Assembly: GCA_031277105.1 (NCBI GenBank)
Contig: JAISLW010000268.1
Span: 98,698 to 162,697 of the forward strand
Direction: 5' to 3'
Origin: Planctomycetaceae bacterium
Lineage (GTDB): Bacteria > Planctomycetota > Planctomycetia > Pirellulales > Thermoguttaceae
Length of the DNA: 64,000 nt
Shown here: positions 5,714-61,328 of the stretch, piece by piece
How positions within the stretch are numbered: the stretch's first letter is position 1
Layout: every line of letters begins with the position of its first letter
Notes under the pieces: model-generated
Told to the model about the DNA's origin: nothing
Database searches by the model: none
The model's input: the letters and a program-made list of their open reading frames with translations, nothing else
Made by a program: the position numbers and the translations under genes

Positions 5714-6266
5714 TTTTATTTTTTTGCCATTCTATTCTGCTTTCTATTATTTTTTGTGGTAATAGGAAAAAAGGTATCCACCAATTTATGTCTTGTTTGT
5801 ACATTTTTTCGGCTTTTTCTACTAGATCGGTAGGCATCAGAAAACCTAATGCAAATGCGTGGGCTTCCTGTTCAATTCTGGTATTTCCTTTATGACATGC
5901 ATAACATCTACCTTTGCTTGAGTGCAAAATATAATGGGCATACTCATGTATCATTTTGTATCGTTTGGTAATATCCAATACGTGCATAGGAATAATTATG
6001 TCAAATAATTTATCTTTATGTACGTAAATAGTTGTATCGAAAATGTCCTGATGTTTTTTGAATTGTAACATGTCAATGTAATGGATTTCACCTTTTTCTG
6101 ATTCGATAAATTCGTGTATTTCGCTGGGAGTCAAGACGCGTTTGTTTGATTTATTAATTTTTTTACCTAATGTTTCGCCTTCTTGAAATATTTCACGTAG
6201 GTTACGGTTGCACTTGACCATCGGTTTGTAATTTGATTTTATTTTTAATAAGTTTTTTAATGTCAT
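5706..6266 (-). CDS. ImmA/IrrE-family (M78, COG2856-like) zinc metallopeptidase
   Basis: HEYAHYILH (HExxH) followed by EQEAHAFALGFLMP, the family's E-x-x-A-N-x-F-A-x-x-L-L-M-P block. Strong SD (AAAGGAGTATTAAA-ATG). Its stop overlaps the cyclase start by 8 nt. Confidence 0.8.
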   Translation of the reverse strand: MTLKNLLKIKSNYKPMVKCNRNLREIFQEGETLGKKINKSNKRVLTPSEIHEFIESEKGEIHYIDMLQFKKHQDIFDTTIYVHKDKLFDIIIPMHVLDITKRYKMIHEYAHYILHSSKGRCYACHKGNTRIEQEAHAFALGFLMPTDLVEKAEKMYKQDINWWIPFFLLPQKIIESRIEWQKNKNG

Positions 6267-6446
6267 TTTAATACTCCTTTGACGTATTTTTACACTTTGG
6301 TAGCGTTTAAATACATCGTAAATGTTTTTTTTGTTGGGGGAAAACGCATAATTTGCGAAACGAATTATTACATTTAAGAAAAACAGGTCAACTTATAGGT
6401 ATTGTATTTGGCGCAATATGTTTATTTGATTGTGTCATGTTTTTAT

Positions 6447-6725
6447 TTAATGTGAAGTGTTTACGTTATGGAGTATCATTCTTGTAATAATGGGCGATTC
6501 GAGTGGCTGTTTTCCTTTGTTTTTTTGTTTTACGTTGGGTATATACTTTTTTGCTAGGACGAGTCCTAGTAGTAATGAGTTCGCAATAATTACGTACTGT
6601 AAGTACAATCTTATATTTGATTCAATGTTGAACAGGGTTTTATAGGTTTGGTTTTGGTCTTTTTTTATTATGATTTTTTGGACGGTTTGTTGCATTTTTT
6701 TTGATTTATTTTTCGTCTGATTCAT
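6447..6725 (-). CDS. small basic single-pass membrane protein, hypothetical
   Basis: 92 aa, Lys-rich with one hydrophobic helix (YVIIANSLLLGLVLA). Overlaps the upstream ORF by 20 nt. Confidence 0.4.
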   Translation of the reverse strand: MNQTKNKSKKMQQTVQKIIIKKDQNQTYKTLFNIESNIRLYLQYVIIANSLLLGLVLAKKYIPNVKQKNKGKQPLESPIITRMILHNVNTSH

Positions 6726-7190: not shown

Positions 7191-7484
7191 TTAATAACCG
7201 TATCGGTCATAATTTTGATGTTTGGCGAAATATTGGTCGACTAATGTTCGTAATGCTTCAACGTCGTCGCCTTTACAACGATGCTTGTCGACAAATTCAG
7301 CGGCGTGTCCTAATAACAACGGCATGTTTTGTTGTAATTTTAACGTTTTTCGTATTTTTTTTGCTAATTTTTTTGTTGGTTCATATCCGCTGTTACGTGT
7401 AGAACCCAAATGCCATATCGAACTATAACGCCACGAAATACAAGTCGACCAATTGTTACGAAAATAATCTTCTCTTGTTACCAT
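7191..7484 (-). CDS. hypothetical protein
   Basis: 97-aa ORF 8 nt downstream of the DUF3037-like gene. Confidence 0.4.
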   Translation of the reverse strand: MVTREDYFRNNWSTCISWRYSSIWHLGSTRNSGYEPTKKLAKKIRKTLKLQQNMPLLLGHAAEFVDKHRCKGDDVEALRTLVDQYFAKHQNYDRYGY

Positions 7485-7492
7485 TGTTTTTG

Positions 7493-7855
7493 TTAAGTTT
7501 GTCTGAAAATGTAATCGAATAATTCATCTATATCTTTTTGCGGATTTGTTATTAACATTGATTTCGGTTCTGTCAATTGGATGGCGTTTGCTCTTGTTGT
7601 TTGGAATTGTTTTAATGCGTTTAGCGTAATAATGTTTTTGTCTTTGACTAGTTTTGAAAAATGTTGTTTTGTCGATTCGATTTGGTCTAGCGGTTGGTTT
7701 TTTCCGAAAATAGATTTAATTCTTTTGCGACATGATTTGACCATTTTAATTTCACTGAAATTTAATTCTGGACAAATTACTATTACGCCGAGATTGCAAA
7801 CTTCCATCCTAGTCGCATCTGGACAATACTGAATTACGCTGTAGTAACCTTGCAT
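7493..7855 (-). CDS. DUF3037-like protein
   Basis: N-terminus YYSVIQYCPDATRMEVCNLGVIVICPE resembles the Y-S-V-x-R-Y-x-P-D...E-x-x-N-x-G-V-V signature I recall for DUF3037. Confidence 0.45.
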   Translation of the reverse strand: MQGYYSVIQYCPDATRMEVCNLGVIVICPELNFSEIKMVKSCRKRIKSIFGKNQPLDQIESTKQHFSKLVKDKNIITLNALKQFQTTRANAIQLTEPKSMLITNPQKDIDELFDYIFRQT

Positions 7856-8121
7856 ATTTCTTTTTTTATTTGTTCGTTGTAGTTTGATATTGCTTCATCG
7901 AAAACATCGGCGCAAAAAACTGTTTCACAATATTCCCCTATAAGCGTATAGAATTGGACGGCTGTATTTCCGTCAAGTCGCCGATATAATATACTCATAA
8001 CATCATCATAATCGATGTCTAATAAAAATATCCTTAATCTGTTTTCATAATCAGATATATTTTTGCGGACGAACTCTTTGATTTTTTCTGTACTGTGGTA
8101 TTGCTTCTTTTTCTTTTTCAT
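7834..8121 (-). CDS. hypothetical protein
   Basis: 95-aa ORF directly downstream of thyX. Confidence 0.45.
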   Translation of the reverse strand: MKKKKKQYHSTEKIKEFVRKNISDYENRLRIFLLDIDYDDVMSILYRRLDGNTAVQFYTLIGEYCETVFCADVFDEAISNYNEQIKKEICKVTTA

Positions 8122-8134
8122 GTTTTTTATTGGT

Positions 8135-9022
8135 TTAGATTTTTGTCACATTGACTATACCTAATGATTGCAATTTTTGTAAGCATTCGTCACGTTCTCT
8201 GCATCGTTCCAGAGATTTCCATGACGGGTCTTGGGCTTCAATGAATTGGTTTTCGGTTGCTGGAATTTGTCCTGTTTTTGCAAGTTTGGTAATTATGGCT
8301 TGGTCTAATTTACTCAATTGCATTGATTGCAATTGAAAATCTAAAAATGCTTCCCAGCAATACGGGAATAACGGTTTGACTATTTTTTCGCCGATAATTG
8401 TCGCATATTGTCTGATTTCATATTGGGCGCTCGCTTCCATCCGCAAACCTAAAAACCTGAATAAATTATGCAAATTGATTTTCCAATACGCTTCCGTATA
8501 AGTTGAGAGCGGCAAATCTTTTCTTGCCTGTTCTCTCGCTACGCCGCTTGCAATCCGATTTTCATACAAATTTCTTGCGATGTTGTGAAATTCGCTTTCC
8601 TTGTCAGTCAACTCTTTACCAATAACTTCATCAAAATTACCGCAACTTCCTTGTCGATTAGTTTCCGATTGTTTACGCCATTGGTCTGGTTCTAGCGAAT
8701 AAGCTGAATCAATCGCTATTGAATATCGCGTACTGTATTCGTTGACAGTCGCCGTGCGGTGCCGAATCCATTGCCGCCAACAATCCATCGGCACACGTAC
8801 CAATAATTTTAATTCCGCCATTTCAAACGGAGTCGTATGACGATGCCTGAATAAATATCGCAACAACGTCCGGTCATCCGATGATTTTTTCGTACCTTCA
8901 CCGTAACACACTCTAGCCGATTGAACGATAGCCGAATCATCACCCATCACATCAACTAGACAAACAAAACCATCGTTCAAAACCGGAAATTTTAACCATT
9001 TCAATTCATTTACTTTTTCCAT
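8135..9022 (-). CDS. thyX: flavin-dependent thymidylate synthase ThyX
   Basis: ThyX signature RHRTATVNEYSTRY (RHR-x7/8-S-x-RY) plus a second RHRHTTPFE block. 295 aa. Confidence 0.9.
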   Translation of the reverse strand: MEKVNELKWLKFPVLNDGFVCLVDVMGDDSAIVQSARVCYGEGTKKSSDDRTLLRYLFRHRHTTPFEMAELKLLVRVPMDCWRQWIRHRTATVNEYSTRYSIAIDSAYSLEPDQWRKQSETNRQGSCGNFDEVIGKELTDKESEFHNIARNLYENRIASGVAREQARKDLPLSTYTEAYWKINLHNLFRFLGLRMEASAQYEIRQYATIIGEKIVKPLFPYCWEAFLDFQLQSMQLSKLDQAIITKLAKTGQIPATENQFIEAQDPSWKSLERCRERDECLQKLQSLGIVNVTKI

Positions 9023-10052: not shown

Positions 10053-11612
10053 CTACGCAGCGTCGTAATTTAATTGTAACGCTAATTTGTTCGTACTTAA
10101 AATTAAATCAGGGTTATTACAAACGTTTTGATACGATATTTCACCTTCAAAAGAATCAATTACTTCTTTTTCATTCGGGTCTAATTCTGTATATTGTTTT
10201 TTGCCGTATGAAGGCGGCAACCAATTTTTATGTTGCGAACCGAAAATATTAAACCGCTGCAATATTTTGTCGTCGTTAAATCTAATATGCACCGTCCCCT
10301 TCTTAAATATATCAATTGTTATGTAACCTAGATCAATATTTTTTGTTATTCCTGATTTGACTGCTTTTTCGATAATATCGTTGGCTTCTTGAAACGTACT
10401 TTTACCGCCGTCCAAAAACGCAAGCGCCCGATCAATATTTCGCATCTTTTGACCGAATTCATATCTTAAACTATTCCAATTAGTGTACGGTTGAAGCGGC
10501 AAAATAATTTTTTTGTTTATCTTCCACGCTTTGTTTGTTTTCCATCCGTTGTAATAATGAATGTTTTTACTGAATTCGTTAGTGTAACTGTATTGTCTGG
10601 AAAATTCGTCAAACAACGATATAATTTCCTTTTCTATATTTGCAACTATCTTTTGCGATAATTCATACCGCAACGCCGTAATGTTATAATCGCTGAAATC
10701 ATAATCCTCAAACCGAAATAATTCACTGTGCAACTCCGATAACATCGACGATGTCATTTGTTTATTAAACGCTGGTAATTTAAACAACATTTCCCAATAT
10801 TTTCGGCGTATCATTTTGATATATTCATTCGGCGTAACGTGTATTTGAAATACGTCGCCGCAGTGCAAACTGTATTGATCCGGCGATATTTCCATCAAAT
10901 ATGATTTCAAAATTTTATATTCGTCTAATAATTTCAGCCCCGCTTTTTGTTCCAGACGGCAACGAATAATCGCCGCTCGTATCGGATCAGCGTCAATTAA
11001 CGGATTAGCCGAAATTGAAACAGATTGAACATCGTTCAATTCGTCTTTTTGCAGATTGTCTAAAATCAAACTGAATTGTTCGGTTGTTTTAGGGCGTTGT
11101 ACATATACGAATGCGATTTCAACATTCGTTTTGCGGTCAGCCGCCGCAAAAGCGTTAGGAATAATTTCAATTGAAGCGTCCCAATCTTCAAGCTGGTCTT
11201 TAACAGTTTTGCGTAAATTAGAATAAGGATTGTTCAACGTCGACGAGTTTAATAAACAAACACATCTACCGCCAGGCTTCAATAATGATAACGCTTTGAC
11301 TAGATGCTTGTCGCCGTCCGAAAACGGCGGATTCATTATTATCGCATCATAACGTTTCAACGAATCAAACGTTAAAAAATCATCATGCACAACCCGAATT
11401 TCTTTGCCCTTCAAAATACTACGCAATTCCGGATCAATCTCTATCGCATCAACGTCGATTTTATAATAATCGCTTACTTTCAATAAACATTCAATTAAAA
11501 TACCGTTGCCGGCGCTAGGCTCTAGTACAATCGATTCACGATTGATATTAAGTTTACGAGCCATCTTAAACGCCAAATCAGACGGCGTTGGATAAAATTC
11601 ACGATCAAACAT
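10053..11612 (-). CDS. N6-adenine DNA methyltransferase (orphan, gamma-type motif order)
   Basis: FYPTP near the N-terminus, AdoMet motif I LEPSAGNG, and catalytic motif IV IIMNPPFSDG. No adjacent endonuclease gene. Confidence 0.85.
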   Translation of the reverse strand: MFDREFYPTPSDLAFKMARKLNINRESIVLEPSAGNGILIECLLKVSDYYKIDVDAIEIDPELRSILKGKEIRVVHDDFLTFDSLKRYDAIIMNPPFSDGDKHLVKALSLLKPGGRCVCLLNSSTLNNPYSNLRKTVKDQLEDWDASIEIIPNAFAAADRKTNVEIAFVYVQRPKTTEQFSLILDNLQKDELNDVQSVSISANPLIDADPIRAAIIRCRLEQKAGLKLLDEYKILKSYLMEISPDQYSLHCGDVFQIHVTPNEYIKMIRRKYWEMLFKLPAFNKQMTSSMLSELHSELFRFEDYDFSDYNITALRYELSQKIVANIEKEIISLFDEFSRQYSYTNEFSKNIHYYNGWKTNKAWKINKKIILPLQPYTNWNSLRYEFGQKMRNIDRALAFLDGGKSTFQEANDIIEKAVKSGITKNIDLGYITIDIFKKGTVHIRFNDDKILQRFNIFGSQHKNWLPPSYGKKQYTELDPNEKEVIDSFEGEISYQNVCNNPDLILSTNKLALQLNYDAA

Positions 11613-12221: not shown

Positions 12222-12596
12222 TTACCTAAAACTACCTACATTCGGATGCTGCGCTAAATTTTTACCTATATCGTACAGTTTGTCATACAATTTATCGGCT
12301 TCCGTCGACTCAATTATTTTTTTAGTTTCTAGCTCTTGTACTCGTAAATTTTCGGCGCCTAAAGCGTCTTGGGCTTCATAATACGCATCGTGATATTCTA
12401 TCCTCATTTTTCGTAATTCTTTTTCAAACCGCTCTTCAGACGATACAAGTTTACGATACAACGCATTCGATTTACTAACAGATTGCTTGACCGAATTTAT
12501 ATCGTTAAAAACAGACAACGAACTCATTCCCACACGTTCATGTTGACCGCTTTGTAACGATTCAAATAAACTAATATTCGCAATATTGTTATTCAT
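12222..12596 (-). CDS. shared-leader family protein (member 1)
   Basis: Start set at ATG 12596 (SD AAGGG). N-terminus MNNNIANISLFESLQSGQHERVGMSSLSVFND. Confidence 0.6.
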   Translation of the reverse strand: MNNNIANISLFESLQSGQHERVGMSSLSVFNDINSVKQSVSKSNALYRKLVSSEERFEKELRKMRIEYHDAYYEAQDALGAENLRVQELETKKIIESTEADKLYDKLYDIGKNLAQHPNVGSFR

Positions 12597-13388: not shown

Positions 13389-13901
13389 TTATTTGGTTTT
13401 TATTACCAATATCCACGTATCGCCGTTTCGCATTAAACCTGCCGAAACAGGTTGCCGTAACAATAACAATTGACGAGTCCGCCGTGAATTTAACCACGAT
13501 CTAACAGGCGATTTCGACGTTGTCTTAATTACGCTGCATTGACTAGTTTTGTTAAAATTCGATTTATAACTAGCAGCCGCTTCAACTAATTCAGACGATA
13601 ATTCAAAAGGTTGCAATTTCAATTTAATACGCTCGCCGTTCAATTCGTCCCAAACCGTTTGAATTTCATTATCCAATACAAAATTAGATTCATTTATCGG
13701 TTCGGATTCTGTTTGCGGTACGGGAATTATAGGTTCAGGTTCAATTTCTTTTGCCGTCAACGTTTCATACGCCGCAACTGTAGCTATCGTCGCTATCGTC
13801 GCATTATACTGTTCCGTAACAGGCACAACTTGACGATTAGACGAATTACACATCAACAACAAAATTACAATAATTATCCCAATAATTAACAATCTAGACA
13901 T
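13389..13901 (-). CDS. signal-anchored secreted protein, weak CAP/YkwD-like C-terminus
   Basis: Start set at ATG 13901 (MSRLLIIGIIIVILLLMCNSS). The C-terminal WLNSRRTRQLLL...AGLMRNGDTWILV vaguely resembles CAP-domain ends. Confidence 0.35.
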   Translation of the reverse strand: MSRLLIIGIIIVILLLMCNSSNRQVVPVTEQYNATIATIATVAAYETLTAKEIEPEPIIPVPQTESEPINESNFVLDNEIQTVWDELNGERIKLKLQPFELSSELVEAAASYKSNFNKTSQCSVIKTTSKSPVRSWLNSRRTRQLLLLRQPVSAGLMRNGDTWILVIKTK

Positions 13902-14112
13902 GTTTTTTAACCTTCTTTTTATCTTTGGTTTCTTGGTATTTTTGGATCGCAATTTTCAACGCCGTACTGGGAACAAAACCAATTTGCCGCGTAAATAATT
14001 TAACAAACGATTGCAACGAAACGTCGTTAAAAATCGCAACTGAATCGTTACGCTCGCATTGATAACTTTGCAACGATTCAAATTCGCTAATATCTGCAAC
14101 GTTATTGTTCAT
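13894..14112 (-). CDS. shared-leader family protein (member 2, short)
   Basis: Start set at ATG 14112 (SD GAGGA, 9-nt spacing). N-terminus MNNNVADISEFESLQSYQCERNDSVAIFND. Confidence 0.55.
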   Translation of the reverse strand: MNNNVADISEFESLQSYQCERNDSVAIFNDVSLQSFVKLFTRQIGFVPSTALKIAIQKYQETKDKKKVKKHV

Positions 14113-16008: not shown

Positions 16009-16779
16009 TTATTCAGGCGGCATATCCAGTAATTTTAACGTTACCGTATCCTGAAAACTTACATTATTTGTTGTAAACTTATCCGATATGACTGCACTTG
16101 GAACATCTACAATTTGAGTCGCATCACTTGTTGTCGTTTGTAACAAATTAGCCGTAATATCAATTAACGCCGTTTGCAACGCGTCAATAAAACTTACATT
16201 ACTTGTTGTAAACTTATCCGATATGACTGCACTTGGAACATCTACAATTTGAGTCGCATCGCTTGTTGTCGTTTGTAACAAATTAGCCGTAATATCAATT
16301 AACGCCGTTTGCAACACGTCAATAAAATTAGACGTTTCAATTTGATTATTAGGGAAATCTATAACCGCCTGATCGATTAACGTACAATCGGCGCTAAAAA
16401 ATAAATTAACAAAACTGTACAAAATCAATGCGGCGTTATCCGCAAAAACATTCGCATCAAATTGCTCGTCATCAACAACAAATTCATATTCGTCTTGTAA
16501 CGCAGTCAATTCTGTCAAATACTCGTTCAATACGTTATCGGGAATAACGTTTGTTAGCGTCAATTGCAAAATGTCTTGTAATACAGCTTGCGTAAGTTGG
16601 CGTATTATAGGTTCGTCCGAAACGCCGCCTTGACTTATAGCGCTTAATTTATTCAACAAATTGTGCCACGTATCAGTTTCAACAGCGGCAACAGAACGTG
16701 AAACTAAAAAAGTTGCCAGCCGTTTACGCAACCCGCGATCATTCAATATTGCCGTCGCTAATAATTCTAATAAATTCAT
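16009..16779 (-). CDS. fibre-associated protein with internal 45-aa tandem duplication
   Basis: 256 aa containing FID[VA]LQTALIDITANLLQTTTSDATQIVDVPSAVISDKFTT[SN]NVS twice in tandem. 4-nt overlap with the upstream fibre-like gene. Confidence 0.55.
   Translation of the reverse strand: MNLLELLATAILNDRGLRKRLATFLVSRSVAAVETDTWHNLLNKLSAISQGGVSDEPIIRQLTQAVLQDILQLTLTNVIPDNVLNEYLTELTALQDEYEFVVDDEQFDANVFADNAALILYSFVNLFFSADCTLIDQAVIDFPNNQIETSNFIDVLQTALIDITANLLQTTTSDATQIVDVPSAVISDKFTTSNVSFIDALQTALIDITANLLQTTTSDATQIVDVPSAVISDKFTTNNVSFQDTVTLKLLDMPPE
16056..16325 (-). repeat. 2 x 135-nt in-frame tandem repeat
   Basis: Units 16056-16190 and 16191-16325 differ at only a few positions. Confidence 0.9.
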
Positions 16780-17476: not shown

Positions 17477-18544
17477 TTATGGGTTATTGTGAAAACCCAA
17501 ATAATCTTTCGTACCGAAATCGATTTTAATTGCACGATTCGGGAATCCGTTCAAATCAGAGTAAGCAAAGGAATCGCCGCGTTTGACCATCTTGTCCAAT
17601 ACGGCATAATCGACCCAAAAACTACCCATCGGCATATCGTCAACATAATTACCAGTACACCAATTGTCGCCCCAACTATTCCATATCAAAAATAATTTAC
17701 GATTACCGTTAATAGTTTTTCTAGCAATTACAGCCATCGAATGACTCCAATTGCCAGACGGTTTACATACGCCGTCTTTATCTCGCACTTTAGCAAAACC
17801 CTGATTACTGCATACGTTGACCGGATAACCGTTGCCTATTAACGACCACGCTTCTTGTGCGTCGTTTACTCTAGTTGTTGAATATACGTTACGCGGTTTA
17901 GCGGCAATTTTAAGCTGTTCGCCTACGCCTGTACGTCCGAATTGTCTGGCTCGATTAGGTTGATTTATTGTTAAATCTATCGCTTCGTATTTCATACAGT
18001 ACAAAGTACCCAGCGATTGTATCGCTTTCGCTGCACCCGAACCTGTACCGCCGTCGCCGCGTCCCAATAAACCCGCAGCTTCCCGCATCAAACCGTACAT
18101 GCCATCCGCCGAATGCATCGCAATAAACTCTTGCGGCTCCCGCTTGTTGAACTCTTCAACCGCATTCAAAACCGATAAACACGCAGCCGTCGCATTACCT
18201 ACGCACGAACCAACTTCGCCCTGATTGTAAGCCTTGACTACTGTCAACGTTTCAGTACCGCCATGACCGTCCGATTGCTTCCGCTCCACAGTCCAACCTT
18301 TGACGTTGTACTTTTCAATACACGGAATTAACGCCCGATATAACAACGCATCCGCATTCGTATCCAACTTGATCAATTCCGCTACTTGCACACCGTACAA
18401 CGGCGGTATCGTCTTGACAAATTCTTCTGTAGCCTTTTTGTCTTCTATCCAGCCTTGACCAAACTCAAAACCACGTTGCCCGTAAACAACGCCGCCAGAA
18501 AACAAACAAACTAAAACCAATATTACTCGTAACAATAAATTCAT
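17477..18544 (-). CDS. secreted papain-like (C1-type) cysteine peptidase
   Basis: Q-x-x-x-G-S-C block QGEVGSCVGNATAAC, His block NWSHSMAVIA, and the N-S-W-G-x-x-W block LIWNSWGDNWCTGNY. Start set at ATG 18544; the track start is TTG. This gives the signal peptide MNLLLRVILVLVCLFSGGVVYG. Confidence 0.65.
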   Translation of the reverse strand: MNLLLRVILVLVCLFSGGVVYGQRGFEFGQGWIEDKKATEEFVKTIPPLYGVQVAELIKLDTNADALLYRALIPCIEKYNVKGWTVERKQSDGHGGTETLTVVKAYNQGEVGSCVGNATAACLSVLNAVEEFNKREPQEFIAMHSADGMYGLMREAAGLLGRGDGGTGSGAAKAIQSLGTLYCMKYEAIDLTINQPNRARQFGRTGVGEQLKIAAKPRNVYSTTRVNDAQEAWSLIGNGYPVNVCSNQGFAKVRDKDGVCKPSGNWSHSMAVIARKTINGNRKLFLIWNSWGDNWCTGNYVDDMPMGSFWVDYAVLDKMVKRGDSFAYSDLNGFPNRAIKIDFGTKDYLGFHNNP

Positions 18545-18645
18545 GATCAAGATATAAAGTAAAAGTAAAACAAAGTACAAAACGGACTATAACATAGATG
18601 TAAAAAACCGTGTCGATAAAAATAAAAGAAACAAGTCAATCACCT

Positions 18646-18726: not shown

Positions 18727-19008
18727 TCAAGTTTTTATTTTATATTCGTCTTTTTCTAATCTCTCTTTAACCGCTTTAAGCACGCCTTCCGTCCACGCAA
18801 CTTCACGCTCATAATTTTTCAAATCAGCAGGATCGTCCGGTTTCGATTTCTTTTGCAAATATTTGAGTCTGGCTTCTATCGATTGTATTAACGCTTCATC
18901 CGATTTTTTCGTAAATTCATTAAAAACAAACAACGAACTCATTCCCATCTTGTCATGTTGACTAGATTGCAACGATTCAAATACTGAAATATCTGCTATA
19001 TTACTCAT
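18727..19008 (-). CDS. shared-leader family protein (member 3)
   Basis: N-terminus MSNIADISVFESLQSSQHDKMGMSSLFVFNE. Confidence 0.6.
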   Translation of the reverse strand: MSNIADISVFESLQSSQHDKMGMSSLFVFNEFTKKSDEALIQSIEARLKYLQKKSKPDDPADLKNYEREVAWTEGVLKAVKERLEKDEYKIKT

Positions 19009-19041
19009 GTTTTTGTAATAGATTGTAAGGTAATCGTATGA

Positions 19042-19530
19042 TTATTTATATTTTATATCGAACCACAAATCGAATTTTGCCGCTTGATCGCGTAACGATT
19101 TTTGAATTTCATCAATATCATCGACAACAGCGTCAAACACATTTTTGCGAGCGGTTGCTTTATCCGTTTTATCTTTGAGTATATCGTTTCGTTCTTTGTT
19201 AGATTCAGTTTTTAATTGTTTCGTAATACTCATAATCTTGTTTTTTAATTTTAAATCAGTTTCAAACGTATCCTTTACTTTTTGCCAAACAGGATTATCG
19301 GCTTGTAATACGCCTTGCGTTTTAATCGCTTCTTGATATTCAGCATAAACCGCTTTTGCTTGCGGTATATGACTTTTATTGTAAGTTTCTACCAGCGATT
19401 TATATTGTGCAACTAAATCTTTGACTTTATTTAAATCATTAAATACAGCCATCGGATTTATTCCCATTCGTTCATGTTGACCGCTTTGTAGCGATTCAAA
19501 CAAACTTATATCCGCAACATTATTATTCAT
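19042..19530 (-). CDS. shared-leader family protein (member 4)
   Basis: N-terminus MNNNVADISLFESLQSGQHERMGINPMAVFND, with a coiled-coil-like remainder. Confidence 0.6.
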   Translation of the reverse strand: MNNNVADISLFESLQSGQHERMGINPMAVFNDLNKVKDLVAQYKSLVETYNKSHIPQAKAVYAEYQEAIKTQGVLQADNPVWQKVKDTFETDLKLKNKIMSITKQLKTESNKERNDILKDKTDKATARKNVFDAVVDDIDEIQKSLRDQAAKFDLWFDIKYK

Positions 19531-19554
19531 CTTTTGACTCCGCTTTTTATATTT

Positions 19555-19944
19555 TTAAACCGTAAATAGTTTTTTTATTTCTCGTTCCGCTTCTGGATAT
19601 AATTTATCTGTTATTTTATCCCATTGTTTTTTATCTTTTAACGCAACTTCGTTAGTAGGATCGTTTCGTAATATGTCGTCAATCCGAAACCATTCTCTAT
19701 TAGTCCCTCGTTGAAATACAGTTTCAAGGTCAAATAATTCGTTTTCACTTGCTTCCGATATTTCTTTTTTTATTTTCGCTTTAAGCGTTTCGGCTCTTTT
19801 ACGTGCAGATGATACGTAAGTTCTAATTTCTTTTTGCACAGCGTCTAATGCAGGCGAATTGAATACGCTCATTTGGCTTATCGATCCTGATTGACCGCTT
19901 TGTAATGATTCAAATAAACTTATATTCGCAACATTATTATTCAT
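19555..19944 (-). CDS. shared-leader family protein (member 5)
   Basis: N-terminus MNNNVANISLFESLQSGQSGSISQMSVFNS. Confidence 0.6.
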   Translation of the reverse strand: MNNNVANISLFESLQSGQSGSISQMSVFNSPALDAVQKEIRTYVSSARKRAETLKAKIKKEISEASENELFDLETVFQRGTNREWFRIDDILRNDPTNEVALKDKKQWDKITDKLYPEAEREIKKLFTV

Positions 19945-19959
19945 GTTCTTATTGTTTGG

Positions 19960-20271
19960 TTAAAGGTTGTCCGCTGAACCTTCGGAAGCCCAGCGTGCTG
20001 TATCCATCGCTTTGCGAAATCGACCGTCTAGTAATTTATGCTCTTCTGCTGTTAACTCTTTACTTTGCCACATAGACCATGCTTTTTCATACGCTATTTT
20101 TGCTTCCCTACGGGCTGCATACGCCTTTTTTGTAGTAGACTCTAACTCTTGCAATAACTTGGCTACTTCACTTGCCGTAATAGCGTTAAACACCGACATC
20201 TGACTTGTCGATCCTGTTTGACCGTTTTGTAACGATTCAAATAAACTTATATCCGCAACATTATTATTCAT
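19960..20271 (-). CDS. shared-leader family protein (member 6)
   Basis: N-terminus MNNNVADISLFESLQNGQTGSTSQMSVFNA. Confidence 0.6.
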   Translation of the reverse strand: MNNNVADISLFESLQNGQTGSTSQMSVFNAITASEVAKLLQELESTTKKAYAARREAKIAYEKAWSMWQSKELTAEEHKLLDGRFRKAMDTARWASEGSADNL

Positions 20272-20283
20272 GTTTTTACTCCT

Positions 20284-20748
20284 TTATCTAATTGATAAAC
20301 CTTTCGGTAAACTTGGTAAACTATCGCCGTATTCGCTCGTCCCTACCGAACCTGTTGAACCTGGTCTAGGCTTGGGATTCGGGTAAGGATTAGTCGAATG
20401 TAACATACGACCTAACGCAAGCGTTATTTCAATTTGCCAATTCATATATTTGATTTTGACCGAAATACTCGTTTCAATTCCAATACTCTCTTGTAATATA
20501 ATCGGCTTGGTAATAAAAACGTTTATGCCTTTGGCTTTGCACGCCTTGACCTGTTCGTCAATTAATAATTCCAATTGCGAACTTGTCAATTCTATATCCC
20601 GCAAAATATTTTGTGCCGACGCTTTGTAATCATTACTTGACGCTTGATTCCGATTGTATAAATTCGATAAATTCCAACCTACTAAAACGCCTACCAAAAT
20701 TACTATTACAATAGTAACTACTTGACTTGCTTTATTACTTTCATCCAT
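20284..20748 (-). CDS. N-terminally membrane-anchored protein, hypothetical
   Basis: 154 aa with helix VVTIVIVILVGVLVGW near the N-terminus. Confidence 0.5.
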   Translation of the reverse strand: MDESNKASQVVTIVIVILVGVLVGWNLSNLYNRNQASSNDYKASAQNILRDIELTSSQLELLIDEQVKACKAKGINVFITKPIILQESIGIETSISVKIKYMNWQIEITLALGRMLHSTNPYPNPKPRPGSTGSVGTSEYGDSLPSLPKGLSIR

Positions 20749-20756
20749 AATTCACC

Positions 20757-21242
20757 TCAATTTTTGAAAAGATTTGACAATTCGTTTAACGCTTTGATTA
20801 CATTTTGTTTGTCTGATTTATTCATTGTTTTATGCGTTTTATCTACACCTGTACTTGACCGCAAATAATTATCAATTTCGTCCGCTAATCGAGGATACTT
20901 GCCCATCAGATCGTCGCCGAAACATAAAACGCCAGCCCGCGAATTTATATCCTTGATAAAACTTGAATTCGATATTAAATTACGGTCGTCATGCTGCACA
21001 ACGTTGGCAAACGCTTTATAAAATTTTGATAACCTGTCCCTGTCCTCTTTAACCGCTTTTGACGCAATACTTCTTATATTAGCCAAATGTGTCTCTTCAC
21101 CGTATAACGTATCGGAAACAAGAACAGATTCAGCTTTCGGTTGTACGTATTGCAATCGCCATCCGTTGTAACACCAAATCACGACTACAACGAGCGCCAA
21201 AAAAACAATTACCCTGACGTTTTCATTATTACTTTTTTGCAT
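20757..21242 (-). CDS. N-terminally membrane-anchored protein, hypothetical
   Basis: 161 aa with helix VIVFLALVVVVIW near the N-terminus. Confidence 0.5.
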   Translation of the reverse strand: MQKSNNENVRVIVFLALVVVVIWCYNGWRLQYVQPKAESVLVSDTLYGEETHLANIRSIASKAVKEDRDRLSKFYKAFANVVQHDDRNLISNSSFIKDINSRAGVLCFGDDLMGKYPRLADEIDNYLRSSTGVDKTHKTMNKSDKQNVIKALNELSNLFKN

Positions 21243-21528
21243 TTTTAGTTACAGACGTTTCATTGGTTACTATCGTACCGTTCTGACTTAATTTCTCATT
21301 CAATCTGCGAATCCTAAACGCATACAAATCTGCATCAAAACCGTCTTCCCGTATTAATCCCGATTCACGTTCTATATCCTCAAAATCTTTTTTTACCTTG
21401 ATGCCAAGTAAACCTAAAAAACGTGAAAATACATCAGTTTTTCCGCCGTTTGATTTCGGCATTACCAATACCAGTAATAACACCGCTACAAGTAACCAGG
21501 GGATATATTCATTTGATATTGTAATCAT
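21229..21528 (-). CDS. N-terminally membrane-anchored protein, hypothetical
   Basis: 99 aa with helix IPWLLVAVLLLVLVM. Overlaps the next gene by 14 nt. Confidence 0.5.
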   Translation of the reverse strand: MITISNEYIPWLLVAVLLLVLVMPKSNGGKTDVFSRFLGLLGIKVKKDFEDIERESGLIREDGFDADLYAFRIRRLNEKLSQNGTIVTNETSVTKNAKK

Positions 21529-21538
21529 ATTACACTCC

Positions 21539-21877
21539 TCACTTTCGTTTTGCGTTAATACGTTTATCTAATTGACTCATGGATTTTAGCGCCCGTTCTG
21601 CTTCGTCTTTTGAGCCTTTGCCCGAATAATACGCTCTCGCTTTATCGTGATAATCAGATTCAGCCGCATTCGCTTTACGCGTTAAATGAGCAATACCGTT
21701 TGAACCGTTTTCAACATCGTCGTCTTCTTCATTACGCGTTTTCAAATTATTACGTCGTTGTTGACCGCGACTCAACGCATCAGCTAAAATACCATTTTCT
21801 ACATCGATACCAAACGCGGCATTTTGTGCCACTTGTATCTGGTCAAATAATTCTATATTCGCAATAAAATCTTTCAT
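21539..21877 (-). CDS. divergent shared-leader family protein (member 7)
   Basis: N-terminus MKDFIANIELFDQIQVAQNAAFG aligns with the ADISLFESLQ leader. Its start overlaps the stop of the 551-aa gene. Confidence 0.5.
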   Translation of the reverse strand: MKDFIANIELFDQIQVAQNAAFGIDVENGILADALSRGQQRRNNLKTRNEEDDDVENGSNGIAHLTRKANAAESDYHDKARAYYSGKGSKDEAERALKSMSQLDKRINAKRK

Positions 21878-23532
21878 TAGTTTATCTCCGTTTTTGATTT
21901 TGACGGAACAGTATCGTTGCGACGCTTTGATTTTAAGGAGTCATATAATTGTTTTGTATCGCTTACGTTACTTGACGTACTTGGTTGTTTAAGACCTTCA
22001 ACGCCTAACGTTATCGCTTCTCGCGTAAATTCCGTAATAAGTTTTTGCAATTGTATCATTTCGTCTCTTATCGTTTTTAATTCTTTCAATTGTGCAGGCG
22101 TTATATCATTTTCTTTATCTGTGCCTTTAATCGCATAAAATTGTTTCGCTAAATTTACAATTGCTTCTCTGTACAAATCAATTAAGGTTTTAATTTTCTT
22201 TTGCACGTCTGCCGGTACTTTGCCGCGTTGGTATTTTTTCAACGATATTAACGATTGTATATTTTCTATATCTTCGTCTTCTCCGTTTTCTATTTCGTCG
22301 ATTTTTTCTTTGTTTTCATTTAATATTTTTTTGATTTCATTGGCTACCGCCGCTTGTATTGTCGTCAAAAGATTCGCATCAACAGAATCATTGTTAAGAA
22401 TAATTCCATTAGTTGTAATATAAGTCGGACGGCAAATTACTTCCGTAGGCGTATCTTTATATTTAATTGTACGATCCTGTAATATCTCATAGTCTATCTT
22501 GTATAATTTTTGATGACTACTATTGATTGTATAGACTACAAAAGTGTCAAAAATATCCTCAATATAAAGATACGTATTTTTGTCTATTTTCAAAAAAGAT
22601 TCTAAAGTTGTTTGTAACAGATTTCGCAATTCTTTTTGACCGATAGTCAGCGGCGATTTTTGTTTCATTTCCTCTTTGGTTACTATCGGCGGCGTAAATT
22701 GTACGGAATCTGGCGCAACTTTTTCAGTAGCGTCTTTTGTTACCATTGCAGTACTTTTAGCAGTTTCGGGTTCCGTTGCAGGCAATATAGGCGGCGCAAC
22801 CGACGTTAAATCACTGACTTTCATTATCTCATTCGTTACAACATTATTTCCATTTGGTATTGTTACTGGCATTTTATTTTCCTTTAATATATCTACAATT
22901 TGACCTAACAATTCTTGTGTTTTGTTTTCTTGATGCAAATTTGCATCCGCCCCGTTTTCTTTATTTTGTTCCTGCGCTTGATTGACTAGTAATCCTGCGC
23001 CGTCTTGAATTGAACATGCGCCTGATTTATTCGGCAAAATAGCCAAATGATCCGCCCTGATGTTTTTGGCAACCGTATCATACCGCTCGCCTTGCCAACT
23101 GCCTGGATCAACAACACAATCCGCAAACAAACCCGTTGAAACTTCCATCGGAGTCCACGTCTCAATATGTTCCAGAACTAACGGCTCCTTATCTTCTATC
23201 TTTTCTTTATCTAGCCACGCTTCCGCTTTTAATTTTTCATCTTTCCATTGAGCGTGCATTATCATCCCGATTGCTTGCTTCTTATAAACGTCAAGATCAG
23301 TCGCCGTATCGCCCTTGAACGGATGCTGTACAGTAACAGGTTTCATATTCCACATAGCAGGCGTTTTAGATAATTCTTCTTTGGAATAATAAATTGAACC
23401 TTGCGACCCTGCATGAACGCCTTCCAAAATCATCGACATCGGTACGACAATATAAGACCTGCCGTCTAATTCTTCTTGCCGAATTAACGGTTTTTGCTCA
23501 ATATTCCATACAATCGATAAGGCTTCAGGCAT
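21877..23532 (-). CDS. DUF2213-like prohead protease/scaffold candidate with long coiled-coil C-terminus
   Basis: The N-terminal block GRSYIVVPMSMILEGVHAGSQGSIYYSKEELSKTPAMWNMKPVTVQHP resembles the DUF2213 pattern I recall (..EGV..G....Y.P.EEL.K.......P....HP). Confidence 0.4.
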   Translation of the reverse strand: MPEALSIVWNIEQKPLIRQEELDGRSYIVVPMSMILEGVHAGSQGSIYYSKEELSKTPAMWNMKPVTVQHPFKGDTATDLDVYKKQAIGMIMHAQWKDEKLKAEAWLDKEKIEDKEPLVLEHIETWTPMEVSTGLFADCVVDPGSWQGERYDTVAKNIRADHLAILPNKSGACSIQDGAGLLVNQAQEQNKENGADANLHQENKTQELLGQIVDILKENKMPVTIPNGNNVVTNEIMKVSDLTSVAPPILPATEPETAKSTAMVTKDATEKVAPDSVQFTPPIVTKEEMKQKSPLTIGQKELRNLLQTTLESFLKIDKNTYLYIEDIFDTFVVYTINSSHQKLYKIDYEILQDRTIKYKDTPTEVICRPTYITTNGIILNNDSVDANLLTTIQAAVANEIKKILNENKEKIDEIENGEDEDIENIQSLISLKKYQRGKVPADVQKKIKTLIDLYREAIVNLAKQFYAIKGTDKENDITPAQLKELKTIRDEMIQLQKLITEFTREAITLGVEGLKQPSTSSNVSDTKQLYDSLKSKRRNDTVPSKSKTEIN

Positions 23533-24702: not shown

Positions 24703-25839
24703 TTACGCTGGCGGCGTTGCAGCAGGCGCTAAAGCGCCGTGTAAAATACCGCAATTACCGTAATAATCCGATTTCAAACGCGGTAACAAAATACATAACA
24801 CTTTGAAATGTATCTCAAAACCGCCTTCTGTATGCCATTGAACCGTTGTTATATCCATGCCCGTTACAGCTTGGATTGTACTTTGACTCATTTCCAACAT
24901 TACCAAAACGCCGCGCGGTAAAAATTCACACGTTCTGATACTATGCACCATTTCAATCTTTAACAACCGTTCCCGCAACGTAATACTTGAATATACGCCG
25001 GCAGTGCCAATGTTATAATCATCGTCTAAAACTTCATCAAAATCAGGACTGACGTAAATATTGAATGGCCCGTAATGATACCTGTCCATCAACGCTCGTC
25101 TGGCGTCCAAAATCTCTTTTTGCAATATACCAGGCGTCCACGAAGTATTACGCGTGCCGTCGTTGTACCAGGGATTCGTAAATACTTTTGTCAATCGATT
25201 CGGGTAATTCATTACGCCGTACACTCTGCCGCTACCATACGTATAAGAATCACTTACGCCTAACGATAATTTTTCAACTTCTTCAGCGACCATTTGTGCA
25301 GCGCCTGCCGCTGTTGAAGTATCAATCGGCATGTTTGAATTGCGTGAAACCGCTATCTGCCTAGCCGAAAATGAAAAATCCTTGTGAATAAGCGGTAACG
25401 GCATTTGATCCATGTCGTACATAGGTCGATCCGCATCGCCTTTACGCAACCCGTCCATACTGACAGTAGCGCCCGTTAGATTCGATTGCCGCTCGTATTG
25501 CCATACAGTTTTACCTAACGCATTCGGTAAATTAACGTTCAAACCTGCAGCCCGCAACTCGTTAAAAAATCGCAAACGAGGTCTAGCAGCCGTTACTACC
25601 GCTTGGTCTATCATAATCCAGTCGTCTTTACGCAACGTTGCCGCGTTTTGAGTCGGTACATTACGATAAACAGGTTTATTGTCTTTGTATTGTCCCGTGT
25701 GCTTGCTTATGTAACTCTTGCCTTTATACACAAACGGTCGAATACATCTCGGATCGAAACCGTTTTGCAAAAGTCGCGTAGCAACATCGCCGCTGCCGCT
25801 CATCGAGTCCTGACTTGCTACCATATATTCAATAGCCAT
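24703..25839 (-). CDS. major capsid protein candidate (DUF2184-like)
   Basis: 378 aa from ATG 25839 with a strong SD (GAGGAGAATAAATAAT-ATG); the track start at 25857 is a TTG inside that SD. It is the largest ORF of the head module, downstream of two scaffold-like acidic proteins. Confidence 0.6.
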   Translation of the reverse strand: MAIEYMVASQDSMSGSGDVATRLLQNGFDPRCIRPFVYKGKSYISKHTGQYKDNKPVYRNVPTQNAATLRKDDWIMIDQAVVTAARPRLRFFNELRAAGLNVNLPNALGKTVWQYERQSNLTGATVSMDGLRKGDADRPMYDMDQMPLPLIHKDFSFSARQIAVSRNSNMPIDTSTAAGAAQMVAEEVEKLSLGVSDSYTYGSGRVYGVMNYPNRLTKVFTNPWYNDGTRNTSWTPGILQKEILDARRALMDRYHYGPFNIYVSPDFDEVLDDDYNIGTAGVYSSITLRERLLKIEMVHSIRTCEFLPRGVLVMLEMSQSTIQAVTGMDITTVQWHTEGGFEIHFKVLCILLPRLKSDYYGNCGILHGALAPAATPPA

Positions 25840-38519: not shown

Positions 38520-38592
38520 TATTCAAAAACTTTGCATAAACAATTTGCCGTCGTCATTTAAGTCGTTCAATTCAAGACAAATTTCATCGGGA
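38509..38592 (-). repeat. 84-nt direct repeat B, copy 1 (3' end of ABC ATPase gene plus start of next gene)
   Basis: 82/84 identical to 41587..41670. Confidence 0.95.
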
Positions 38593-45235: not shown

Positions 45236-46717
45236 TTATTTTAGACCGAAATTTAGCACGGATAAATTGTCGATTTGTTCGGAGTTGTCTTCGGAGATTG
45301 CTTTTGCTCTTGCGGCTTGTGAGTTTTGCAATATTGAGTCCGCTTCCTTGTCGGACATATTCAGGAACATCATTAAAAAATCTTTTGGGCAGATTATTGT
45401 TTCGATGTTGTTAGACAGATATGAGCCGATAAGGTTTAATTTGTTGTTTGCGTTTTCGATTTTTTGTTGGTCGGTTCCGGCGTTCAAGTCGTCCCATTTG
45501 ACAAAGAAAATACCGTCTTTGGGCGCTGGCAATTCGCCGATTTGAATCAGCCGCGTTATAAACGGTTTCAATACGAAAGGCGTTAAATAACGTTTCATAC
45601 GCGTCATTAACGTTTTATTCCATTCGGCTACATCTTGCGAACTTGCCAGATCGCCGCGTTCGGAACCGCAAAATATACGCTTCGGACACGATAGCGCTAT
45701 TGCTATCAATTCAATGTTTATATCAATGTGTTCTCTTGGCGATTGGACTTGCGGGCTTAACGAATTAACGTGAGCGTTGGTCAAACCGAACCAGCGTTGT
45801 AATCCGTTTTCATACGCCGCTATTTGTTTTTTCATACTGTCTAAATCTAATTGCACGCCGGACGTAACATCGTCGACCGCTTCAACGCTGAAACCTGGAT
45901 AAGCGCCTTTATAAAACATTTCGCCGGACGAACCTGCTATTTTGCGTATATCTAAAACGTTGTTATAGACTAATTGTAAACGGGGCATACCGAATACAGT
46001 CGAAGTTTGACGATTATCAGCAAGGTGCAAAACCCGCGTCCAATGCACGTCAAGCGTCCGCATATCAACCATGCCCGTATCGTCTTGACAATTATCAGGA
46101 TCGTTAAATTGAATCCGATATAAAACAGGTTGACCGTAACGCGGGTTAGAAGTATTAGTCTCAATTTGAGAAACCTCAATTTGACTATGCGCAAAAGCAC
46201 GCAAATAAATCAATTGATATTTACCCTGCTTCAACGTTTCGGGCAAATATTCAACGCAATCTATCGGCTCGCTCAAATCTTTACCGTCTGAAACGCCAAA
46301 TAAAATTAAGCCATAAGAACCGATGCCTGATAAAATATCAGCAAGCGTCAACACGCCGTAACATTCAAACAATTCAAACGTCCGTTCTAACTTCTTTTCA
46401 AAATCGCTAGTTGACAATTGGTCTTGATCATAAATTTCAGGTTCGGACAACCAGCATTCATTCGGATAAATTGAAACAACTCGATTCGCAATTGCGTTGC
46501 GGTCGAATAATTTCTTGTACATCAATTTGTTGACTATATCAGGGTATCCGAATTGCGTATCGTAATCGCGGTTTAACGTATTCGTATCAACTTCGCCGTT
46601 TAATCCGGCAAGCAACGACCGTCTGTACAACGCTTGAATTATTTCGTTACGTACTACAACATCGTTTTGCAATTTCTCGTTTTCGATTATTACGTCTTTT
46701 TTCAGATTTTTTGCCAT
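45236..46717 (-). CDS. portal protein candidate (DUF1073-like)
   Basis: 493 aa. The size and N-terminal region (..FGYPDIVNKLMYKKLFDRNAIANRVVSIYPNECW..) match my recollection of DUF1073 portals. A MuF-like gene lies downstream on the same strand. Confidence 0.6.
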   Translation of the reverse strand: MAKNLKKDVIIENEKLQNDVVVRNEIIQALYRRSLLAGLNGEVDTNTLNRDYDTQFGYPDIVNKLMYKKLFDRNAIANRVVSIYPNECWLSEPEIYDQDQLSTSDFEKKLERTFELFECYGVLTLADILSGIGSYGLILFGVSDGKDLSEPIDCVEYLPETLKQGKYQLIYLRAFAHSQIEVSQIETNTSNPRYGQPVLYRIQFNDPDNCQDDTGMVDMRTLDVHWTRVLHLADNRQTSTVFGMPRLQLVYNNVLDIRKIAGSSGEMFYKGAYPGFSVEAVDDVTSGVQLDLDSMKKQIAAYENGLQRWFGLTNAHVNSLSPQVQSPREHIDINIELIAIALSCPKRIFCGSERGDLASSQDVAEWNKTLMTRMKRYLTPFVLKPFITRLIQIGELPAPKDGIFFVKWDDLNAGTDQQKIENANNKLNLIGSYLSNNIETIICPKDFLMMFLNMSDKEADSILQNSQAARAKAISEDNSEQIDNLSVLNFGLK

Positions 46718-60683: not shown

Positions 60684-61328
60684 CTAAAAAACGGTATTAA
60701 ACAAATCCATACTTGACCAACTGCCCGATAATATTGATTTTTTCATATCGTCTATCGGCGGCAACGATCCGTCGCTAGTTTTGCCTTTCTTTTTCGCCGT
60801 CGTCAATATCGCGTTTATCCGCTTCATCGAAAACGTTGTAAATTTATTTAAATCAGCGCTAGTCAAACCTAACTCTTTAATTTTTTCCCAGCGTTCTTTT
60901 AGCCTGCTCGTAAACAAACGCGGTACATATTGTTCAAATTTATCCGCTTCTTGTATCGTTAATCTTAAACCGCTTTCCGCTTCAGATAGCGCATATTTGA
61001 CGTTATTATTGTTCTTGATTTCAGGCTCCGCAGCAATCCATTTTTTTAACTCTTTCAATTCCGCTTGCCATCCAATTTGATGTTCGTATAAAAAATAAAG
61101 ATGTCTAAAAAAAGATTGTTGCTCGGTCGGCGATATTATTATGTTAAATAAATACGCCTTCTTGTTATCAGGCAACACGTCAAAAGGAACAGATTTACCC
61201 GCTAATTTATTACGCAAAAATACATCGTCAAAAACGGCATGAATTGAATCAAAACCCATCGCTGAATTAGCCGATAATTGCAACGACTCAAATACGCTAA
61301 TATCCGCCAACTTGTCCATAATAAGCAT
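60684..61328 (-). CDS. shared-leader family protein (member 8, distant locus)
   Basis: N-terminus (MLI)MDKLADISVFESLQLSANSAMGFDSIHAVFDD. The start could be 61328 or 61319. Confidence 0.55.
   Translation of the reverse strand: MLIMDKLADISVFESLQLSANSAMGFDSIHAVFDDVFLRNKLAGKSVPFDVLPDNKKAYLFNIIISPTEQQSFFRHLYFLYEHQIGWQAELKELKKWIAAEPEIKNNNNVKYALSEAESGLRLTIQEADKFEQYVPRLFTSRLKERWEKIKELGLTSADLNKFTTFSMKRINAILTTAKKKGKTSDGSLPPIDDMKKSILSGSWSSMDLFNTVF

Follow-up and report, generated by a model that had tools for sequence, protein, structure and literature searches.

The internal proteins of phage T4 are small and basic, and their N-terminal tag of approximately 10 residues (MKTYQEFIAE) is cleaved after the Glu of an [LI]-x-E motif. 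Among the T-even phages the internal proteins are highly diverse and only the tag, known as the capsid-targeting sequence (CTS), is conserved; it is responsible for encapsidating these proteins into the scaffolding core (PMC3012670). The arrangement described here is found in a stretch of 64,000 nucleotides (hereafter the window) of contig JAISLW010000268.1, part of a phage genome on a 171,649-bp contig that NCBI files under a metagenome-assembled genome (MAG) of Planctomycetaceae. Eight small proteins of the window begin with a conserved leader of about 30 residues and, as in the gp21-cleaved proteins of T4 (IPI, IPII, IPIII and Alt), a short N-terminal sequence is the sole common part of a set of diverse small proteins. 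The reading that we favour, with moderate confidence, is that the leader is a capsid-targeting propeptide of internal head proteins that is removed by a prohead protease.

In staphylococcal phage 80alpha, a host protease removes an N-terminal stretch of sequence common to the capsid protein and the scaffold protein. This case resembles the present one in that unrelated head proteins have in common an N-terminal stretch that would mark a processing site, and differs from it in that only two proteins are involved, both of which are essential components of the shell or the scaffold. In the phiKZ-like phages, some of the head-internal proteins belong to paralog families and cleavage takes place after [S/A/G]-x-E; to our knowledge, their propeptides do not form one conserved leader. 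Many head-internal proteins of these phages are reported to be trimmed by an assemblin-type protease (gp175 of phiKZ, gp245 of SPN3US) and ejected into the cell (PMC7411985, PMC10052503). No phiKZ-type genes were recognised in the window. Finally, the gp24-type protein of phages Pa193 and PB1 (Pbunavirus) belongs to the same Pfam family as the protease of the window (PF09979, given the short name Pa193_gp24 in one table). In Pa193, a helix-turn-helix of gp24 stays bound under the capsid vertices, and the protein has been proposed as a scaffold only (PMC11456595).

A leader shared by eight small proteins

Exactly eight genes of the window start with the leader, and all of them, like the other genes of the window, are on the minus strand. 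The pattern that they have in common is M-N-N-N-[VIL]-A-[DN]-I-S-x-F-E-S-L-Q...S-V-F-N. A leader profile compared with the six-frame translation of the window gave eight matches, all at protein N-termini, with scores of 58.9-78.6 bits, and the next best match scored 5.9 bits; M-N-N-N-[VI]-A-[DN]-I, converted into a degenerate DNA pattern, had five matches in the window, while 0.01 were expected. The eight starts listed in an earlier note, made by reading the sequence, were all found in this way. That note also held that the remainder of each protein is unrelated, and this is borne out: the parts that follow the leader (the cargo) show no significant mutual similarity (best BLASTP E = 0.22).

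Four of the genes lie in tandem in the interval 18727-20271: m20271 (19960..20271, 103 amino acids; leader residues 1-29, nt 20185-20271), m19944 (19555..19944, 129 amino acids; leader residues 1-29, nt 19858-19944), m19530 (19042..19530, 162 amino acids; leader residues 1-31, nt 19438-19530; 78.6 bits) and m19008 (18727..19008, 93 amino acids; leader residues 1-30, nt 18919-19008). The leader of m19008 was detected by the profile, and those of m20271 and m19944 by both pattern and profile. The cargo of m20271 has homologs in proteins P0156, P0137 and P0215. The protein m19530 corresponds to NCBI MDR2170665.1, annotated as 'hypothetical protein', and its ortholog in the related contig L003 lies directly upstream of the protease gene; an apparent ortholog of m19008 in contig L002 (leader and start of the cargo alike, judged by eye) adjoins a gene for a papain-like protein. 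Two further members found by pattern and profile, m14112 (13894..14112, 72 amino acids; leader residues 1-29, nt 14026-14112) and m12596 (12222..12596, 124 amino acids; leader residues 1-31, nt 12504-12596), sit among neck and minor-head genes, m12596 having a Neck1/minor-head-like gene on one side and a minor-head-like gene on the other. The leader of m61319 (60684..61319, 211 amino acids, with an alternative ATG at 61328) is MDKLADISVFESLQLSANSAMGFDSIHAVFD (nt 61227-61319; 59.7 bits), and that of the divergent member m21877 (21539..21877, 112 amino acids) is MKDFIANIELFDQIQVAQNAAFGIDVEN (nt 21794-21877; 58.9 bits). The ATG of m21877 and the protease stop codon have one base in common (TAATG), and the position of m21877 is conserved in contigs L002 and L004, where the tags end in V-S-N-G and I-D-N-G.

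The earlier note described the leaders as nearly identical at the nucleotide level as well. This holds for four copies (m12596, m19530, m19944 and m20271), which have 48-51 of their first 54 nucleotides in common, but not for the others, which carry many synonymous differences. Such a repeat could in principle act at the level of DNA or RNA, as a regulatory or recombination site, and the four similar copies are what this explanation has in its favour. However, over all pairs of the leader core the mean proportion of synonymous differences (pS) is 0.49 and that of non-synonymous differences (pN) 0.24, and some pairs reach a pS of 0.86 at a pN of 0.12; the excess of approximately two-fold indicates that what is conserved is the peptide, and not a DNA or RNA element. 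Moreover, the similarity begins exactly at the ATG and the DNA upstream is unconserved (only 6-18 of 30 nt are common to the four copies), and the peptide is kept across phages whose proteases are only 41-53% identical. Five of the eight ATGs are preceded, at a distance of 7-10 nt, by a GGAG/GAGG-like ribosome-binding site, which supports the start of the leader at residue 1, and the search for a promoter word common to the regions upstream of the leader and head genes yielded nothing convincing. As a side effect, the short stretches of nearly identical leader DNA could favour the exchange of cargo cassettes.

The composition of the leader speaks against export. It is acidic (median pI, or isoelectric point, of 4.65) and rich in Asn (12%), Ser (12.5%) and Gln (9%), with 0.2% Cys and no hydrophobic run in the consensus. 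A Sec, Tat or lipoprotein signal was rejected, since the leader lacks a positively charged start, a hydrophobic core and a lipobox. The earlier note had named a secretion or lipoprotein signal and a DNA-level repeat among the findings that would overturn its proposal; both are ruled out, the first by composition and the second by pS being greater than pN, and we consider it scarcely credible that either accounts for the leader. An amphipathic helix was not supported, the hydrophobic moment being approximately 0.1. No model that covers the leader was identified in Pfam, PHROG or NCBIfam (for NCBIfam, among the 25 listed of 143 matched families). In the AlphaFold2 model of m19530, the leader is an extension of low confidence, with a predicted local distance difference test (pLDDT) score of approximately 60 and a helix at residues 8-20, and the cargo is a predicted three-helix bundle (pLDDT >90) for which a fold search returned only generic helical matches.

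An exhaustive search with the profile, which covered 1.84 billion representative proteins, yielded 188 further proteins at E ≤ 1e-3, of which 150 are listed. Nearly all of these 150 have 50-260 amino acids and carry the leader within residues 1-35, starting in the first few residues. The family consensus is M-x-N-N-[LIV]-A-[DN]-I-S-x-F-E-x-L-Q-x-x-[QA]-[HN]-x-x-x-G-x-S-x-M-[SAG]-V-F-N, with full invariance at A and Q and at least 90% conservation of I, S, F, E, F and N. Aligning the leader across relatives, as the earlier note had suggested, shows a shared peptide that ends abruptly after V-F-N: the information content of these three residues is 3.7, 4.2 and 4.1 bits, that of the next residue (D, A, S, E or G) is 1.45 bits, and beyond it the value falls to approximately 0.5.

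The confirmed matches come from metagenome contigs and from contigs binned into Planctomycetaceae MAGs, for which a termite-gut origin is suspected from the isolate names. A pattern scan of GTDB genomes returned 14 loci, seven of them true leaders, all on Planctomycetaceae-binned contigs, and seven chance matches. In IMG/VR, a DNA pattern scan identified one contig (L005), and scans with the protease and with the leader alignment confirmed nothing. The leader consensus had no tblastn match in 50,697 cultured-phage records, among which T4-like phages are to be expected; 12 kb of the window had no megablast match among cultured phages, and a word-indexed protein search with one leader protein recovered only that protein.

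The DUF2213 protein and the candidate cleavage site

The gene at 21877..23532 (minus strand) encodes a 551-residue protein that combines a putative protease with a scaffold-like tail and matches DUF2213 (PF09979) with E = 1.1e-10 and 42.3 bits, the cut-off being 22; NCBI annotates the proteins of the window as 'hypothetical' or 'DUF2213 domain-containing'. PHROG models named 'head maturation protease' match it with E = 1e-9 to 1e-10. The protease domain comprises residues 13-184 (approximately nt 22981-23496) and is modelled by AlphaFold2 with pLDDT >90; it is followed in the model by a disordered linker (residues 185-202), a middle domain (295-375) and long C-terminal helices. The top Foldseek matches in the PDB are three 5JBL chains of T4 gp21 (probability 1.00, target TM-score 0.55-0.57), and the next are the proteases of the herpesviruses KSHV (Kaposi's sarcoma-associated herpesvirus) and HCMV (human cytomegalovirus). 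No PDB entry matched a sequence profile of the protease, and fold comparison alone succeeded. Homologs of the protein number 727. Among 120 homologs, residues S132, H70, D161 and H162 show little or no variation (each kept in 119-120), and H40 is present in 110. According to the model, the N-terminal domain has the fold of T4 gp21 and herpesvirus assemblin, and the protein joins a prohead protease to a region that resembles a scaffold. Whereas gp24 of Pa193 has been described as a putative scaffold, the N-terminal protease fold is seen here in the model of its homolog from the window.

With regard to the place of cleavage, the earlier note had pointed to L-F-E or V-F-E, which fits the [LI]-x-E motif of T4-type proteases. 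The F-E of the leader is nearly invariant (143 and 144 of the 150 listed proteins), but the preceding residue is Thr or Ala in 53 of the 150, and conservation continues for approximately 18 residues, up to V-F-N. Judging from the alignments, cleavage after V-F-N is more likely than cleavage after L-F-E, for four reasons. In the first place, this is the point at which conservation of the leader stops, just as that of the T4 tag stops at its end. Secondly, the protease domain itself ends in an invariant motif, G-A-G-L-L-x-N184 (118 of 118 aligned homologs), after which conservation collapses and the disordered linker begins, a typical place for self-release. Thirdly, an N-terminal [LIVMFY]-x-N-G is found in related capsid proteins: it occurs within the first 16 residues of 38 of 44 unique N-termini of the DUF6260 capsid family, as opposed to 5% of control windows, and capsid proteins of this family from many environments (loci L031-L102) start with M-D-[FY]-[IV]-x-N-G, for example M-D-F-I-L-N-G; the divergent class of m21877 likewise keeps [VI]-x-N-G, having lost the Phe.

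The fourth reason is that the boundary motif recurs in the capsid protein of the cultured phage PB1 (L103), whose capsid and DUF2213 genes are located at 7218-8366 and 5172-6569, respectively. The hhalign probability between the PB1 DUF2213 protein and the protease of the window is 91%, and the position homologous to the L-L-x-N domain end is occupied by G-L-C-F-D-H. The PB1 capsid protein has G-L-V-F-D-H at residues 36-41, inside its first 65 residues, and the N-terminal 65 residues of the capsid protein are not seen in the structures of E217 and Pa193 (PMC10329688, PMC11456595). The boundary residue is thus changed from Asn to Asp in PB1, in protease and capsid protein alike, and G-L-[VC]-F-D-H may be a common cleavage motif in this phage. 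In the window, an L-L-Q-N near the N-terminus of the capsid protein was considered as a cleavage site and rejected, since its Asn is not kept in related capsid proteins.

Genome context, cargo and alternative functions

In the order of transcription, the window contains a replication module (primase-helicase, DNA polymerase, clamp loader, SSB-like and UvsX-like proteins), the portal gene (45236..46717, minus strand; Phage_portal_3, E = 2.3e-26), genes for a decoration-like protein and for the major capsid protein (24703..25839, minus strand; HK97 fold, DUF6260, by PHROG and Pfam family matches), two small structural genes, the DUF2213 gene and m21877. These are followed by three genes for small proteins with hydrophobic N-termini, m20271, m19944, m19530 and m19008, the papain-like protein and genes of unknown function. 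Seven of the eight leader genes belong to the head-neck module. An encapsulin cargo-loading peptide was considered, given a weak Linocin_M18 match of the shell protein, and rejected in view of the portal, which marks the genome as that of a tailed phage, the neck proteins and the full replication module.

The linkage of leader and protease is repeated elsewhere. The protease is present at every leader locus with enough flanking sequence, and related contigs conserve the order capsid gene, two small genes, protease-scaffold gene and divergent-leader gene. Contigs L003 and L004 have four and three leader genes, respectively, located on both sides of the protease gene and, in each contig, one of them directly upstream of it. 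In L021 (a 167,820-bp contig with a protease approximately 41% identical), 12 leader genes are found within 20 kb, and the majority form a series that opens immediately behind the protease gene. A JGI metagenome contig, L027, whose protease is approximately 55% identical, has a different tag, M-Q-T-F-N-S-F-Q-E-L-A-A-A-N-G, on four plus-strand genes (starting at 1758, 2693, 3715 and 9222), one of which is directly upstream of its protease gene, and this suggests that the arrangement predates this particular leader sequence.

Several neighbouring genes, all on the minus strand, deserve mention in their own right. The three proteins with hydrophobic, membrane-like N-termini (99, 161 and 154 amino acids; 20284-21528, between m21877 and the tandem array) are conserved in L002, L004, L006 and L018, and membrane proteins are unexpected in a head module. 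A 256-residue protein (16009-16779) contains a near-perfect tandem duplication of approximately 45 residues (...IDxLQTALIDITANLLQTTTSDATQIVDVPSAVISDKFTT...); it matches no family significantly and has two PHROG matches of unknown function (E ~0.004). Between the portal and head genes there is a 586-residue protein with a C-terminal DUF2326 (38523-40283; E = 1e-24), and just downstream of the head-neck genes one of 519 residues with an N-terminal DNA methyltransferase-like domain and DUF4942 (10053-11612). A 1030-residue protein without the leader (33548-36640) is possibly a minor head protein of large size; its only family similarity, weak and confined to the N-terminus, is to PHROG families for 'head morphogenesis' and to portal-associated ones.

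The papain-like protein (17477-18580, minus strand; 367 amino acids) has a strongly hydrophobic N-terminus (signal sequence or membrane anchor), and weak matches to cathepsins and staphopain; it matches neither Pfam nor PHROG models and is possibly a lysis enzyme that is exported. Its gene adjoins leader genes in the window and in L002, L003 and L009, and the weak papain-family similarity is located around the His-Asn-Trp region, so that it could be imagined as the processing enzyme of the leader, in an arrangement of precursor and peptidase like that of bacteriocins or of ribosomally synthesised and post-translationally modified peptides (RiPPs). We find this highly improbable. The N-terminal export signal or anchor suggests that the peptidase is exported, while the leader proteins have no export signal; the 20 kb surrounding the L021 array do not contain it; no leader family of this kind (NHLP, Nif11, double-glycine) appears in the Pfam list or among the NCBIfam families listed; and no modifying enzyme was found among 43 proteins of the window that were scanned. 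The cargo, with 31-234 amino acids, abundant Lys and Glu and 0.5% Cys, is not of the RiPP type either.

The cargo parts available from the listed matches, 140 in number, form 100 BLAST clusters, of which 80 are singletons. Their median length is 104 amino acids and their median pI 8.7; 35% of the residues are charged (11.7% Lys), membrane segments are absent, and the parts are helical and coiled-coil-like. Their matches to family models amount to coiled-coil noise, with the exception of P0233 (L020, 475-1251), a complete extracytoplasmic-function (ECF) sigma factor that comprises regions 2 and 4 and follows two leaders in tandem; its contig, from ENA, has a length of 2.6 kb. This fusion calls to mind the pro-sigma factors of Bacillus sporulation, and the leader could accordingly be an inhibitory pro-sequence or a degradation tag that serves for timing, a possibility to which its flexible, extended form in the model and the resemblance of its boundary to a processing site also lend themselves. 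This explanation seems to us quite improbable, because approximately 100 unrelated cargo families are unlikely all to need one inhibition, and because it leaves unexplained the protease-linked arrays and the matching boundaries of leader and protease domain. Furthermore, the prohead proteases of well-studied phages, such as T4 gp21, act inside the assembled procapsid, so that cleavage of the leader by the DUF2213 enzyme would imply packaging anyway.

Another possibility is that the leader is a docking or adaptor handle unlinked to the capsid, which would bind one partner (a host hub protein, RNA polymerase or a phage chaperone) on behalf of a family of host-takeover proteins. The sigma factor would fit well in such a family, as would the helical, coiled-coil-like cargo, which resembles many small phage regulators, and two members do lie among replication or other non-structural genes (m61319, just upstream of the replication genes of the window, and the leader gene of L005). 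We nevertheless judge it unlikely. Most members belong to the head-neck module and to arrays with the protease-scaffold gene as their starting point, a handle would leave unexplained the abrupt end after an invariant Asn that matches the boundary of the protease domain, and an acidic tag on basic cargo is what would be expected of internal head proteins.

Returning to the capsid-targeting propeptide, some of the observations weigh against it. The position of m61319 and of the L005 member outside the head genes is one of them, although the ip and alt genes of T4 likewise lie outside the head cluster, which makes this only a weak objection. Another is P0233, the sole sigma fusion among the listed matches and thus a single case. 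The leader was found at only one of 80 DUF2213 loci from diverse metagenomes (the L021 contig), which means that the tag is clade-specific and is not required by the protease family overall. As for the cleavage site, [LIV]-x-N is a motif of low information, present 12 times in the protease-scaffold protein when approximately seven are expected, an enrichment that is unconvincing, and the capsid protein of the window itself lacks an N-terminal Asn motif. Mimicry of the capsid-protein N-terminus by the leader was rejected (hhalign probability of 0.1%), and this absence of profile similarity also counts against the proposal. The T4-type interpretation put forward in the earlier note therefore stands in part: a protease of gp21 fold is encoded nearby, seven of the eight genes are in the head-neck module and the leader is portable across approximately 100 cargo families, whereas the cleavage site has been revised and m61319 falls outside the head genes.

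Proposed mechanism and meaning

The mechanism that we propose would operate as follows. During assembly of the procapsid, the acidic and flexible tag of approximately 30 residues would bring small proteins of unrelated families to the protease-scaffold core, or to the inner shell, and dock them there. The assemblin-fold DUF2213 protease would then remove the leader, with a cut most likely after the invariant Asn of S-V-F-N, and the small, mostly basic helical proteins would remain in the head together with the DNA and could pass into the cell when the genome does. The contrast between the acidic leader (pI 4.65) and the basic cargo (pI 8.7) fits internal head proteins. Docking, cleavage and its site, presence in the virion, ejection and a role against host defences are steps that we infer; an anti-restriction activity of the leader proteins, in particular, is pure speculation.

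The comparison with T4 shows both likenesses and differences. The window phage encodes a gp21-fold protease, and its putatively packaged cargo is small, charged and very diverse. The leader, on the other hand, has approximately 30 residues and its likely cleavage residue is Asn (in V-F-N) instead of Glu; no similarity that can be aligned by eye exists between it and the T4 tag, whose 10 residues are too short to establish homology. The DUF2213 protease is fused to a scaffold-like region, in contrast with gp21, which is a separate protein, and up to 12 or more members are gathered in one array beside the protease gene, in a different and uncultivated host lineage. If the leader proteins are of the same kind as the CTS-tagged internal head proteins, what they add is a new leader family, a different protease family and an unusually large and diverse set of cargo. 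A broader picture, which is possible but doubtful, is that of an uncultivated phage lineage of approximately 170 kb, on contigs binned with Planctomycetaceae MAGs, with one portable, Asn-terminated packaging tag, an Asn-specific protease-scaffold protein of assemblin type that reads it, and a rapidly changing cargo of at least 100 families that would be packed into the capsid and delivered with the DNA, including at least one ECF sigma factor that would redirect host transcription upon entry.

If the proposal is correct, the leader would provide a new tag for packaging foreign proteins into capsids. It would also assign a candidate Asn specificity to DUF2213, a large and unstudied protease family represented, among others, in PB1-like Pseudomonas phages such as Pa193 and E217 that are in therapeutic use or under test for it (PMC11456595, PMC10329688). 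Proteins delivered by phages are a rich source of anti-defence and host-takeover functions, and the tag would be a sequence handle with which to list them, approximately 100 uncharacterised cargo families being already available. The T4 arrangement, in which a single targeting tag serves many diversifying passengers, would then have an independent counterpart in an unrelated lineage and with a protease of a different family.

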